Virus record (IMG/VR): IMGVR_UViG_3300045988_160259
Location: 1 to 64,000 of that record
Source: a virus
DNA length: 64,000 bases
Strand: one strand, 5' to 3'
The position numbers and the translations under genes are program-made. Shown here one piece after another: positions 57,945 to 59,689 of the stretch (the first letter of the stretch is position 1; each line of letters opens with the position of its first letter). The notes under the pieces are model-generated. The model was not told the DNA's origin, ran no database searches, and saw nothing but the letters and a program-made list of their open reading frames with translations.

Positions 57945-58466
57945 ATGATTAAATTTGAAAACAACAACAGTATCGTAGCAGATAACAGCATCGTTTTAAA
58001 CGGTGTTCGTGAGTATAAACTCACAGATGATGAGACGATGAAACTGATGTCTATCATTGACGGTATGATCTCTCAGAGATCTACCACAGGAGTATCTACT
58101 CCATCCACTCAGCTCTCACGGTCTGATGGAAAAGTTGGCGGTATCACTCGTGCCAGCAAAACGCCTTACGAGGCGAAAAAGGCTTTCAAGCCTCAGTACG
58201 AGGTGAAGAAACTTGCAGACGCTGACGGTAAGTCTCTGTTCTGCATCAGCCGTAAAAACGGCTGGACGAGAGCTGAAAAAGCGTTGACGAACGCTGCTAT
58301 CAAAGCTCTCCCGGAGATTATTACAATCTCCGTGCCGTATGAGAAAGACGGCAAGACCAGGACTTTCTCAGCCTGGGGTTATAAGACCAAAAAACGGGCT
58401 GAGGAGATGCTGGAGCAGCTCCCGACTGAGTTTTCAGCAGACGAGCTGAACAACTGGGGTAAGTAA
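57945..58466 (+). CDS. hypothetical protein
   Basis: The ATG at 57945 lies 9 nt after GAAAGG. The track starts at a TTG at 57936. Confidence 0.65.
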   Translation: MIKFENNNSIVADNSIVLNGVREYKLTDDETMKLMSIIDGMISQRSTTGVSTPSTQLSRSDGKVGGITRASKTPYEAKKAFKPQYEVKKLADADGKSLFCISRKNGWTRAEKALTNAAIKALPEIITISVPYEKDGKTRTFSAWGYKTKKRAEEMLEQLPTEFSADELNNWGK

Positions 58467-59689
58467 TTACCCCAGCTCGACTAGGCGAGGTTAAACAGCT
58501 GTTAAGCCTAGTGCGTCCCGGTAGTAATACCGGGGGTCAGATACGCTATAGTATCTATATATTATATACGTAACATGTTCTTTGCTACGTTCTGTCTTTC
58601 CAGCGTTATAGCTGGTTTCGACATATGAAATATTCCAAAAAAATTAAATAAATCCCTGATACCCCGTAGAGGAAAGTTAGGCGTTTCTCGAACGGTTTAC
58701 GTCATGGGACGGCATCAAAAGACGCAATTTAAGGCGTCCTGTTTATGCTAGACATACGTCAGATAAACCGACTGACGCAGTTATAAACAGGAAAACTGCC
58801 AATAAAGGAGGTGTGCGTGATGCAAGAACATGAGTAAATCTAGGTTTTGCGGACAAGTCTTTTATTAGGACAAGGAAGCATGTCATACGTTGGATATAGG
58901 CTTTCAGGGGGGACAAACTGGTGGGAGCCAGTCTAGGTGGAGAGGTCAATCAAACTATCTCGGCATAGAATAGTTCGGATAAACCGAAGATGAAGACCGA
59001 AGAAAGTGGTGGTCTTAAGGTCGGCGTATGTATAGGCTAATACAGCTATACGTTCTCATCCTAGTACAAAAATGGCAAGTGATTGACACAACTTGTCATC
59101 ATAAAAGCGTCTCAAGAGACGGTATTCTCAGTCATGATTTAGAGAAATCGTTTCCAGGATAAAGCGTTCTAACGCCAACGAGGTATAGAACGTGGTTGAC
59201 GCGTTTTCAGTATGGCTGAAAGTAATAAAAACTGATGCCCGCTACTGGTAAACAACGAGATCACGGACTAGAAAATAGTGGTATTGACCGTAGAAGCTTG
59301 GATGAAAAATGTGACTTGGATATTTGTCTTGAGAGACGCAGGTAGCACACAAGAGCCGGTGGTGACACCGATACGAAGTGTTTCGTGTGTAGCGTTGATT
59401 GCATCTGTCTGCAATCGTGTGTGAGGTCTGAGCGGTACAATCCCCGACAGTAAATCCTAACTCTAAAGTTCTTTTAAGAACATTGACGGACGTTCTAAAG
59501 TTGATCGAACGTATTGTAATTTAATACGAGTCATCAACAAAACCGTGATTCTCATAATCGGTTTGTGTAAAGAGGTTGAGACAAGTGGAGAACATGCGGC
59601 TGTATCTAGTTTGAGTGACATAAATAGCAGCGTGGCATGGCAGGTACACCGAATAAAGTAGAAAGGTCGGTGTGAGTAAACCCTCCACT
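58454..59689 (+). ncRNA. 1.24 kb ORF-free, hairpin-dense RNA candidate ending at the hammerhead
   Basis: No plus-strand ORF of 60 aa or more. Over 15 local hairpins. GNRA loops on the plus strand (GTAA 58463-66 and 58524-27, GTGA 59362-65). Nested helix 58738-46/58783-91. Confidence 0.5.

Follow-up and report, generated by a model that had tools for sequence, protein, structure and literature searches.

Organization of the locus

The window analysed here is the whole 64,000-nt stretch of IMG/VR virus record IMGVR_UViG_3300045988_160259 (positions 1 to 64,000). The first rightward transcription unit past a divergent intergenic region comprises, in 5' to 3' order, a leader with a hexaloop hairpin, a gene for a 173-aa protein, a hairpin at its stop codon, a pistol ribozyme, a large RNA, a hammerhead motif and a series of small genes (Table 1). 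No terminator-like sites were found on the plus strand between the RNA and the first of these small genes, which encodes 84 aa. The downstream genes vary among lineages while the RNA stays. A GT-rich repeated intergenic region adjoins the RNA region.

Table 1. Positions of the genes, ribozymes and RNA structural elements in the window
Feature	Position	Strand	Remarks
5' UTR hairpin UCCC-GACAUA-GGGA	57915..57928	+	17 nt before 173-aa start codon; array-type hexaloop
173-aa protein gene	57945..58466	+	conserved, always upstream of the RNA
Stop-codon hairpin CUGGGGUAA-GUAA-UUACCCCAG	58454..58475	+	encloses stop of 173-aa gene, abuts 5' side of pistol
Pistol self-cleaving ribozyme	58475..58541	+	RF02679, 69.5 bits (gathering score 34.5), full-length model match
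Large structured RNA (predicted, excised)	58537..59695	+	1159 nt, from two predicted cleavage sites
5' hairpin array	58539..58630	+	variable stems, fixed C-[GNNNUA]-G hexaloop
Array hairpin AGAUAC-GCUAUA-GUAUCU	58539-56	+	
Array hairpin ACGUAACA..UGCUACGU	58568-90	+	
Array hairpin CCAGC-GUUAUA-GCUGG	58600-15	+	
Array hairpin UUUC-GACAUAU-GAAA	58616-30	+	
Most conserved sequence block UAAAUAAAUCCCUGAUACCCCGUAGAGG	58645..58672	+	core entry; columns nearly invariant in all-lineage alignments
Long-range composite helix	58662..58911	+	closes ~250-nt domain; RNAalifold and pair counts, alignment A3
Composite helix parts	58662-65/58908-11, 58672-78/58899-905, 58680-84/58887-91	+	
Helix 58722-25/58815-18	58722..58818	+	encloses nested hairpin 58738-58791
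Inner stem of nested hairpin	58759-62/58772-75	+	conserved loop AUAAACCGA
SD-like block AAAGGAGGUG	58804-13	+	conserved; after nested hairpin
Hairpin ACUGG-UGGGAG-CCAGU	58917..58932	+	helix 6; 4/5 pairs changed on both sides
Pseudoknot GUCAA (58945-49) with UUGAC (59083-87)	58945..59087	+	UUGAC in loop of hairpin 59076-59095
Hairpin AAGAC..GUCUU	58993..59016	+	helix 7; invariant loop AAGAAAGUGGUG; 96% paired, 5/5 double changes
3' core domain	59345..59459	+	multi-helix junction; alignment A2
Junction helices	59345-50/59417-22, 59357-61/59366-70, 59397-403/59410-16	+	optional hairpin 59373-86
GAGGU, hairpin, then GUAAAUCCUA	hairpin 59428-50	+	after junction; invariant hairpin loop ACAAUCCC
Type III hammerhead motif	59690..59741	+	all core nucleotides present
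Hammerhead stem III	59690-94 with 59737-41	+	U59694-A59737 is the A15.1-U16.1 pair
Hammerhead stem I	59696-702 with 59710-16	+	
Hammerhead core	CUGAUGA 59717-23, GAAA 59734-37	+	
Hammerhead stem II	59724-26 with 59731-33	+	only 3 bp
First downstream gene, 84 aa	59771..60025	+	start codon 75 nt past hammerhead cleavage

Coding potential and relation to curated RNA families

Between 58467 and 59713 the plus strand holds no ORF of at least 60 aa, and the antisense frame 58743..58949 is the only ORF of that size, in agreement with a preliminary description of this DNA. Each frame of the RNA carries 14 to 36 stops. Because TAA, TAG and TGA are abundant in all six frames, no stop reassignment rescues an ORF in 58537-59695. 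Substitutions in the RNA have no codon periodicity (18, 21 and 23 over the three positions), whereas in the neighbouring 173-aa ORF mismatches against the L006 homolog favour third codon positions (20, 17 and 50). A recoded or hidden ORF was ruled out by the six-frame stop maps together with the absent period-3 substitution.

A scan of 57500-60300 against Rfam 15 (4227 covariance models, at the gathering threshold and at E<=10), of the kind proposed in the preliminary description, returned the pistol only and nothing inside the RNA. ROOL (RF03087), OLE, HEARO, raiA, group I and II introns, RNase P, tmRNA and 6S were all without a match, and Rfam scans of the homologous loci gave pistols and sub-threshold noise only. 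The GOLLD model (RF02032, conserved 3' domain) had no match in 57500-60300 (E<=10) or in seven homologous loci (E<=5). As a positive control, Rfam scanning recovered a true GOLLD elsewhere in the window, at 45078-44621 (196 bits); BLAST comparison of the RNA with this GOLLD revealed no similarity. A tRNA-Ile lies 28 nt after the window's GOLLD. The earlier view of GOLLD and ROOL as the nearest known category is upheld, and the RNA is a member of neither family.

In its size, its non-coding character, its covarying domains and its conserved unpaired nucleotides, the RNA corresponds to a large ornate structured ncRNA, a descriptive kind rather than a homology family. We did not find this RNA described in the literature. 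By sequence comparison, the segment 58537-59695 is a member of an undescribed family of phage RNAs that are predicted to be highly folded, multi-domain and non-coding.

Pistol ribozyme at the 5' end

The pistol contains P1, P2 and P3, the conserved core and the two-nucleotide P3/P2 junction when aligned to the consensus. Cleavage is predicted between G58536 and U58537 (GU junction 58536-58537), leaving a 5'-OH on the downstream RNA; the pistol features, the GU-junction cleavage site and the end chemistry (2',3'-cyclic phosphate and 5'-OH) are those described in PMC4604425. At the corresponding position, 20 loci belonging to at least nine lineages have a pistol (60-74 bits), and its P3 covaries among them (CCCGGUA/UACCGGG, CCAUCCC/GGGAUGG, CAGCCC/GGGCUG, CACUCCC/GGGAGUG). 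The helix CCCGGTA-GTAA-TACCGGG (58517-58534), previously listed as part of the RNA, is pistol P3; the RNA thus starts at 58537 rather than at 58454, and the earlier boundary, for which the pistol had been taken for ordinary helices, was 83 nt too far upstream. The stop-codon hairpin that marked that boundary lies upstream of the RNA. It is retained in every lineage with full turnover of sequence (e.g. GCAUGGGG/CCCCAUGC, ACGCCCUCU/AGAGGGCGU and AAAGGCUAC/GUAGCCUUU, which are unrelated).

The RNA's first hairpin and the 3' strand of pistol P2 overlap. In two lineages (L021 and L251) the pistol position is taken by an acceptor-plus-T-arm minihelix, and in L248 a terminator-like hairpin is present instead of a 5' device. 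An isolated pistol match was detected in Cellulosimicrobium phage DS1 among 50,697 GenBank phage records.

Hammerhead motif and tRNA-like elements at the 3' end

The 3' end of the RNA coincides with the predicted cleavage site of the hammerhead, after A59695 (position 17, non-G), as had been proposed; the core and all three stems are present. Both the MFE fold and the centroid of the region are exactly the three-way junction, with stems I and II closed and stem III open. The core pattern has a chance expectation of 0.37 per 64 kb. Rfam Hammerhead_3 (RF00008) aligns in register, but on 116 nt its score is 12.7 bits (E=3.4), where the cut-off is 48.5, and the hammerhead was not reported in the 2.8 kb Rfam scan. 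Since its score falls below the gathering score, it is filed here as a motif and not as a curated family member. It occurs only in the window, L006 and L011 (93-96% identical), with one U.G to C-G change in stem I, and being limited to three close relatives its conservation says little. Its core and stems sit exactly where homology ends.

Two self-cleaving ribozymes therefore flank the RNA, where the preliminary description had counted a single one, and both ends appear, from these motifs, to be ribozyme-defined: by the pistol at the 5' end and the hammerhead at the 3' end. In other lineages the 3' position differs. ARAGORN calls a tRNA-like element there in L025, L026/L031 and L193, the position folds into a cloverleaf-like structure in L015, L021 and L028, and three lineages (L008, L009/L022 and L018) have no recognisable 3' device. 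The exchange of the hammerhead for a tRNA-like element in relatives, and of the pistol as well in two lineages, makes precise excision, rather than circularity, look like the conserved property.

Internal structure and covariation

Homologs were aligned with MAFFT E-INS-i and domain by domain (A1, protein; A2, 3' core; A3, 58645-59030; A4, pseudoknot). In the domain 58645-59030, 89% of cells are paired versus 34-42% in slid controls, 27 of 34 pairs show double changes, and none of 500 shuffles reaches the observed value on any of five measures, long-range helices included. The 3' domain 59345-59450 gives a similar picture in A2, with 92.4% of cells paired against 25-50% when slid, double changes at 15 of 24 pairs, and again no shuffle in 500 reaching the observed value. 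For helices 1-3, which make up the long-range composite helix, 82-91% of cells are paired and 12 of 16 pairs have changed on both sides; helices 4 and 5 (58722-25/58815-18 and the inner stem 58759-62/58772-75) are 91% paired, with three of four pairs covarying in each.

The pseudoknot extends to 8 bp in the window lineage (58945-52 with 59080-87). Across lineages one of its pairs covaries three ways (U-A, G-C, C-G) and another two ways (G-C, A-U), as tabulated by script and by eye, with loops UUGGC and UUGAC for L015 and L021, respectively. The stem of the hairpin that presents the loop strand (59076-80/59091-95) covaries at five of five pairs.

Several local helices had been proposed earlier. 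CGGTG-GTGA-CACCG (59357-59370) and GATTGCA..TGCAATC (59397-59416) are supported by compensatory changes in homologs, and AAACCG..CGGTTT (59540-59564) is conserved in several lineages. Of the nested helix 58738-58791, support is confined to the inner part, which has compensatory changes. The hairpin ACGAA..TTCGT exists but is variable and optional. GTGGAG and CTCCAC are invariant in the only three sequences having them. The homologs show helix covariation and no codon-periodic conservation in the RNA, as expected from the preliminary description. The MFE z-score of the 5' half is -3.9, but reverse-complementing this half still gives -3.3, and the 3' half has -1.0. Because these values are neither strand-specific nor, in the 3' half, significant, they were not relied on, and the argument for structure is based on covariation.

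Hexaloop hairpins and the 173-aa protein

In relatives, the array at the start of the RNA comprises two to eight hairpins; 51 hairpins have 44 different stems, and the loop stays fixed. Compensatory change is seen even within a close group (CCAGC/GCUGG versus CCGGC/GCCGG). The density of such hairpins is 14.9 per kb past the pistol and 9.3 in 5' UTRs, compared with 0.11 elsewhere on the plus strand and 0.04 on the minus strand. Loops kept on the plus strand only, covarying domains and closed reading frames bear out the earlier view of a large, strand-specific and highly structured ncRNA. Membership of the hexaloops in the ANTAR or boxB classes was considered and rejected, as the loop consensus differs.

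The 173-aa protein has 47 homologs, with 110 representatives among 1.84 billion proteins, and most of the homologous genes carry one or two hexaloop hairpins in their 5' UTRs. L025, L193 and L031, in which the upstream protein has diverged strongly, have no canonical array. No Pfam, PHROG, NCBIfam or PDB profile matched the protein, and searching its AlphaFold2 model (pLDDT 75.7) with Foldseek against PDB and BFVD gave a best match no better than E=0.16; the fold held no hint of RNA binding. The same hairpin in the 5' UTR of a co-conserved gene suggests a dedicated ribonucleoprotein, and on the strength of co-occurrence and the UTR hairpin the 173-aa protein is a candidate binding partner of the hexaloops.

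Family and distribution

The RNA family spans 0.7-2 kb in at least ten diverged lineages, as collinear homologs on SPbeta-like phage contigs of 60-210 kb, several of them from human gut samples. Phages with this RNA carry a YonO-like RNA polymerase. Relatives of the upstream protein were looked up or scanned, and in all 13 cases where the downstream sequence was long enough there is a gene-free gap of 1.2-2 kb, which holds the collinear homologous RNA, and further family members were found by RNA sequence motifs alone. Some lineages (L014, L248 and L251) possess only the 5' half, so that not every phage of the family needs the 3' half. The 50,697 GenBank phage records yielded no DNA or protein relative. 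In species-representative genomes, a protein-pattern scan gave no matches and all 28 of 28 DNA-pattern matches were attributable to chance. The DNA pattern AGGGNNGACAAACNGGT was discarded, as none of its 113 loci was confirmed by nhmmer.

Proposed maturation and function

Family conservation, structure, the ribozyme motifs and their positions, the swapping of end modules and the enrichment of hairpins were computed, and we consider that they are probably best explained by an undescribed giant RNA of SPbeta-like phages that is excised by ribozymes and acts as a ribonucleoprotein. We infer that a precursor would be cut by the pistol at the G58536-U58537 junction and by the hammerhead after A59695, so that a discrete product of 1159 nt would begin with a 5'-OH and end in a 2',3'-cyclic phosphate. 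After such cleavage the 3' end of the upstream mRNA would be structured and the downstream mRNA would have acquired a new 5' end; the mRNA of the 84-aa gene would begin with the 5'-OH produced by the hammerhead. Given this overlap with pistol P2, folding of the first hairpin once cleavage has occurred should drive release of the product. The free RNA would fold through long-range helices and at least one pseudoknot, and the 5' array of C-[GNNNUA]-G hairpins may recruit several copies of a dedicated RNA-binding protein. The likeliest binder would be the co-transcribed 173-aa protein, which could autoregulate through the hairpin in its own 5' UTR. Expression, we infer, would fall within infection, when the resulting ribonucleoprotein would act.

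For the more specific proposal of a new class of giant phage ncRNA with interchangeable end modules (pistol or tRNA-like minihelix at the 5' end, hammerhead or tRNA-like element at the 3' end), assembled through its array into a ribonucleoprotein with a small protein, we put the chances at about even.

The RNA could instead work without protein, as a homo-oligomer in the manner of the GOLLD and ROOL nanocages, with the hexaloops and conserved loops serving as RNA-RNA docking modules. Loops of the form G-N-N-N-U-A closed by C-G could adopt a GNRA-like fold. The setting is GOLLD/ROOL-like in phage origin, tRNA adjacency, large size and conserved loops and junctions (PMC12286853), and the same phage has a GOLLD closely followed by its tRNA-Ile. 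We nevertheless regard a homo-oligomer as unlikely, because it explains neither the array-type hairpin in the 5' UTR of the upstream gene nor the absence of the array where the protein is highly diverged, and because the RNA has no sequence or covariance-model similarity to GOLLD or ROOL.

In the window lineage, the 5'-OH and 2',3'-cyclic phosphate expected from two ribozymes make a circle chemically possible, which the preliminary description had dismissed. The functional form might accordingly be a 1159-nt circle closed by an RtcB-type ligase, as in retrozymes and viroid-like RNAs: the two flanking ribozymes have the order and orientation that this requires, and their ends are RtcB-type substrates, those of the pistol product being documented (PMC4604425). 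However, no obvious pairing joins the two termini, and no RtcB gene was present among the ~20 window proteins scanned. Products of RNase P and RNase Z (3'-OH, 5'-P) are not known to serve RtcB as substrates. At the 3' end a tRNA-like element takes the place of a ribozyme in most lineages, as it does at the 5' end in two, and homologs with such an element instead of the hammerhead argue against a circle as the conserved outcome. We judge a functional circle to be quite improbable.

Comparably poor, in our estimation, are the prospects of a purely cis-acting role, in which the RNA would be a structured spacer or UTR that makes upstream and downstream mRNAs independent of each other in stability and translation, or loads an antitermination factor onto boxB-like hairpins. 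The module does belong to an operon in which no terminator-like site precedes the next gene, its leader hairpin and array resemble nut/boxB logic, and processing of polycistronic transcripts is a proposed role of bacterial ribozymes (PMC6765202). Yet a conserved multi-domain structure of more than 1 kb that includes invariant loops, helices of long range and a pseudoknot far exceeds what processing or antitermination needs, and the RNA is kept though the downstream genes differ by lineage. That the region is a missed coding gene (recoded, frameshifted or intron-containing) or a DNA element such as a replication origin with single-strand hairpins, a notion favoured by the adjoining GT-rich repeats, is extremely improbable given the stops in each frame, the lack of period-3 substitution and of any group I or II intron model match, the strand-specific helices with G.U pairs, the hairpin loops kept on the plus strand only, and two ribozyme motifs that imply transcription of the region.

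Comparison with known systems

The proposed excised RNA, acting as a ribonucleoprotein, would have partial parallels. GOLLD (RF02032) and ROOL (RF03087) are likewise phage-encoded and very large, with an intricate fold, conserved loops and variable optional stems, and they too adjoin tRNA or tRNA-like genes. The present RNA differs in being longer (1.16 kb here, up to about 2 kb), in being tied to one conserved upstream protein gene, and in having a hexaloop array and ends at self-cleaving ribozyme sites. Its 5' flank is a canonical pistol (RF02679) in the phage context reported for Firmicutes phages. Pistol ribozymes have otherwise been described without an assigned biological role (PMC6765202), whereas here they are found consistently where the 5' end of a conserved large ncRNA would arise, and are exchanged for a tRNA-like minihelix in two lineages.

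In lambda/P22 N-boxB, the MS2 coat operator and ANTAR dual hexaloops, as here, loops are conserved and stems are variable or irrelevant, and one copy of the hairpin lies in the putative binder's own leader, which suggests autoregulation. ANTAR loops have A at position 1 and G at position 4. Unlike these and the boxB pentaloops, the loops described here are G-N-N-N-U-A closed by C-G, in up to eight tandem copies, and the 173-aa protein resembles none of the N, coat and ANTAR proteins. Retrozymes and viroid-like RNAs resemble the RNA in being ncRNAs bounded by self-cleaving ribozymes that give ligatable ends; the RNA of the window, known here from sequence alone, differs in being DNA-encoded in a phage operon, in having ribozymes of two different classes and no repeats, and in having relatives that use tRNA-like elements.

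MALAT1 is eukaryotic and unrelated. In MALAT1/mascRNA and in theta-ribozyme/tRNA processing (PMC10879173), a tRNA-like structure or small ribozyme, not a terminator, sets the RNA end, and the processing modules are co-transcribed with their cargo, which resembles the arrangement proposed here. The theta ribozymes of gut phages process tRNAs (PMC10879173), whereas the cargo here would be a large ncRNA; a further difference from both systems is that a hammerhead and a tRNA-like element share one position across lineages.

Only a handful of very large structured bacterial and phage RNAs are, to our knowledge, known, namely GOLLD, ROOL, OLE and a few others, each of which has led to new RNA structural biology, and the present family is longer than these. 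It offers unusually good experimental handles: its exact ends are predicted, there is a candidate for its protein partner, the putative binding motif is simple and repeated, and natural variants lack the 3' half or have swapped end modules. If the proposal is correct, pistol ribozymes would for the first time have a defined biological role, and MALAT1-style maturation of long ncRNAs would have its counterpart in bacterial viruses. It bears on a question that has stood since 2015, namely what purpose the many phage self-cleaving ribozymes serve: because the pistol and hammerhead sit where sister lineages have tRNA-like RNase P/RNase Z substrates, precise liberation of an ncRNA becomes a directly testable function. 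With phages that carry a YonO-like polymerase, and several contigs from the human gut, this RNA family may matter for the biology of gut Firmicutes phages and their hosts.

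Phage context and relatives of the RNA

The window is part of a 208,682-bp metagenomic contig. Its gene neighbourhood is that of a large phage of the SPbeta-like kind, with YonV_C, AntA/Bro-N and DUF3825 proteins, a polymerase resembling YonO, five tRNAs and one GOLLD RNA. The 921-aa protein at 46153–48918 (−) matches PF05183 (RdRP, E 8e-11), the fold of the single-subunit SPbeta YonO RNA polymerase; together with YonV_C neighbours in relatives, this polymerase points to an SPbeta-like phage.

The 173-aa protein encoded directly upstream of the RNA has 47 homologs, and a profile search recovered 110 representatives among 1.84 billion proteins. 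Wherever a homologous locus extends far enough downstream, the gene is followed by a gene-free gap of 1.2–2 kb, collinear with the window RNA via a series of conserved blocks; additional family members were found in IMG/VR by RNA motifs alone. At least 10 diverged lineages were distinguished (L-numbers are loci from related phage contigs): window/L006/L011/L002, L008, L009/L022/L249, L015, L018/L021, L013/L014, L025/L193, L026/L031, L028 and, listed together, L248 and L251. None was found among GTDB species representatives. L014 (4702–5629), L248 (2826–3357) and L251 (4273–4972) keep only the 5' part, comprising the hairpin array and first core domain, and protein genes occupy the place of the missing 3' domain; these 5' halves suggest a modular RNA.

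Upstream of the protein gene, a GT-rich intergenic region between divergent operons (57430–57730, +) shows a GC skew of up to 0.75 together with the motif ACGAUAAGGGGUACGAUA and direct repeats of degenerate sequence, and could contain operator, partition or origin sites. L031 and L193 have similar motifs (GAUAAGGGGUACGAUAAC, GGUGCGAUAAGGGGG) ahead of the module. Within 57798–57907 (+), a conserved element includes TTGACA as well as a T-run that leads into TAATGTGG, and an inverted repeat (57798–57833) overlaps these; a simple sigma-70 scan called no promoter there. The ensuing leader (57841–57907) contains two interleaved inverted repeats, which could form a pseudoknot. L025, L031 and L193 have sequences similar to 57798–57907 in front of the module.

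Coding potential, structure and covariation

The preliminary description saw no plus-strand ORF of 60 aa or more in the region, and the ORF map bears this out: none lies within 58467–59713, where the sole ORF of that size is antisense (58743..58949). Since TAA, TAG and TGA are all frequent in each of the six frames of the stop-codon map, neither TAG nor TGA reassignment gives a gene. Codon-periodic conservation, the sign of a missed gene, was not found between the RNAs of the window and L006 (18, 21 and 23 substitutions by codon position, the third not favoured); the upstream ORF of the same pair has 20, 17 and 50, favouring the third. Genes for tRNA-Leu(UAA), tRNA-Ser(UGA) and tRNA-Tyr(GUA) cluster at 35204–35506 (−), with a separate tRNA-Trp(CCA) at 39354–39427 (−); no suppressor is among them, which fits standard-code translation.

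All helices listed in the preliminary description are present at the positions given there, but one of them, CCCGGTA-GTAA-TACCGGG, is stem P3 of a pistol ribozyme that had been missed. Folding energy on its own is a weak argument for structure (z = −3.9 for the 5' half, −3.3 for its reverse complement, −1.0 for the 3' half). Helix covariation was found in two domains. For 59345–59450, with four helices placed manually on an alignment of 11 sequences, 92.4% of cells are paired versus 25–50% with slid partners, both sides change in 15 of 24 pairs, and the covariation score of 0.62 (versus 0.07–0.12) was reached by none of 500 shuffles. For 58645–59030, RNAalifold proposes 39 pairs, 29 with compensatory changes; over the 34 counted, 89% of cells are paired versus 34–42% when slid, double changes occur in 27, and 0 of 500 shuffles reached the observed values on each of five measures. 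A pseudoknot spanning ~140 nt joins GUCAA (58945–49) to UUGAC (59083–87) in the loop of hairpin 59076–95; across lineages one of its pairs is U-A, G-C or C-G and another G-C or A-U. Unpaired conserved blocks stand between the helices (UAAAUAAA..CCGUAGAGG, AUAAACCGA, AAGGAGGUG, GACAAAC, AAGAAAGUGGUG, UGAUUGACACAA, UCUGUC, ACAAUCCC and GUAAAUCCUA). Conservation and covariation are established by computation, and the RNA is assigned to the plus strand by its G·U pairs, its strand-specific loops and the orientation of the two ribozymes.

In the interval 58804–58835 (+) of the RNA lies a perfect Shine–Dalgarno-like block, AAAGGAGGUG, its nucleotides conserved in all lineages; 16S rRNA or the ribosome may make contact with it. 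In the window, a mini-ORF of 5 codons (MQEHE) follows at ideal spacing, and this mini-ORF is not conserved.

Rfam 15 gave no match inside the window RNA at E ≤ 10, nor in the same RNA of seven homologs at E ≤ 5; as a positive control, the same run detected a genuine GOLLD at 45078–44621 (−) with 196 bits. This GOLLD has no sequence similarity to the new RNA, and the phage encodes two unrelated giant structured RNAs.

The 5' border, the hairpin array and the upstream protein

Scanning the window with Rfam 15 revealed a full-length pistol ribozyme at 58475–58541 (+; 69.5 bits, gathering score 34.5). Pistol ribozymes cut in the two-nucleotide GU junction that links P3 to P2, and the resulting ends are a 5'-OH and a 2',3'-cyclic phosphate (PMC4604425); here cleavage is predicted between G58536 and U58537. 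Nearly all homologous loci carry a pistol (60–74 bits) 10–230 nt from the stop codon of the upstream gene. L021 and L251 are without it and have an acceptor-stem-plus-T-arm minihelix in its place, directly before the hairpin array, and L248 has a terminator-like hairpin at that position. A hairpin around the stop codon, just 5' of the pistol, occurs in all lineages with unrelated sequences. No large RNA following a pistol ribozyme was described in the literature searched, and reviews regard the roles of bacterial self-cleaving ribozymes as largely unknown.

No GenBank phage record resembles the region overall. Its sole match among these phages is an unannotated sequence in Cellulosimicrobium phage DS1 (MW590223.1, 31632–31703, −), 82% identical to the pistol ribozyme; this phage is actinobacterial, outside the usual Firmicutes range. 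Inserted small, unrelated ORFs (34–80 aa) separate the 5' processing element from the conserved protein gene in several lineages; this junction is a hot spot for gene insertion.

In relatives, 2–8 tandem hairpins directly follow the pistol cleavage site. Their loops conform to C-[G N N N U/A A]-G (GACAUA, GAUAUA, GUUCUA and GUGAUA commonest) and their stems are entirely different (44 distinct among 51). Hairpin density is 14.9 per kb after the pistol, 9.3 per kb in 5' UTRs of the upstream gene, 0.11 per kb elsewhere on the plus strand and 0.04 per kb on the minus strand. The first array hairpin shares sequence with the 3' strand of pistol P2 and can therefore form in full only after cleavage. 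The canonical array is missing in lineages with a highly diverged upstream protein, which retains the same architecture (hhalign E = 2e-4 across the N-terminal 27 aa); L031, one such lineage, has a UTR hairpin loop cut down to AUA. Because array and UTR hairpins co-occur, and the canonical array is missing where the protein diverged, we infer, on moderate evidence, that the 173-aa protein is a candidate binder of these hairpins, a self-regulator and a coat of the RNA 5' part. The fold of the protein gave no independent support for hairpin binding.

Coordinates of helices, processing elements, hairpins and inserted ORFs (window positions unless a locus is named)
Feature	Location	Strand	Support
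Long-range helix	58662-65 with 58908-11	+	covariation
Long-range helix	58672-78 with 58899-905	+	covariation
Long-range helix	58680-84 with 58887-91	+	covariation
Long-range helix	58722-25 with 58815-18	+	covariation
Hammerhead stem III	59690-94 with 59737-41	+	
Hammerhead core CUGAUGA	59717-23	+	
Hammerhead GAAA	59734-37	+	
Array hairpins	58539-56, 58600-15, plus two degenerate	+	
UTR copy of hairpin	57915-28	+	
Inserted small ORF	L009 5532-5709		
Inserted small ORF	L014 4471-4701		
Inserted small ORF	L016 4508-4665		
Inserted small ORF	L021 4531-4773		
Inserted small ORF	L251 4065-4220		
Inserted small ORF	L025 9380-9276	−	

The 3' border and exchange of end modules

The hammerhead noticed earlier at the 3' end has all core nucleotides and three stems, with predicted cleavage after A59695. 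The Rfam type III model aligns in register yet scores 12.7 bits against a cut-off of 48.5, so we treat it as a motif of hammerhead type rather than a member of the curated family; it is restricted to the three closest sequences. Elsewhere in the window, a second CTGATGA-N-CGAAA match, known from the core pattern alone, lies at 28630–28655 (−). From the two predicted sites we infer cleavage that would excise an RNA of 1159 nt (58537–59695).

In L025, L026/L031 and L193, the corresponding 3' site is occupied by an element that ARAGORN calls tRNA-Val(AAC) and that the Rfam tRNA model did not report at its gathering score. Cloverleaf-like elements, with an acceptor stem plus a T arm of the GGUUCGAUUCC type, take this place in L015, L021 and L028 (fold z = −6.2 in L015). 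In the same phage, tRNA-Ile(UAU) lies 28 nt downstream of the GOLLD, both within 44518–45078 (−), which is the "large RNA then tRNA" layout that other lineages show at the new RNA's 3' end.

Judged from these sequences, ribozymes and tRNA-like elements, the latter being substrates of RNase P and RNase Z, substitute for each other at both RNA borders; motif positions and module swapping are likewise computational results. A circular RNA as the obligatory form is argued against, because tRNA-like borders in relatives would give RNase P and RNase Z ends, which are not known to be RtcB substrates. The finding is real, and the most fitting description of the RNA is a new family of giant, structured phage RNAs whose ends are predicted to be set by processing; the swapping at its borders is the pattern expected under selection for its precise release.
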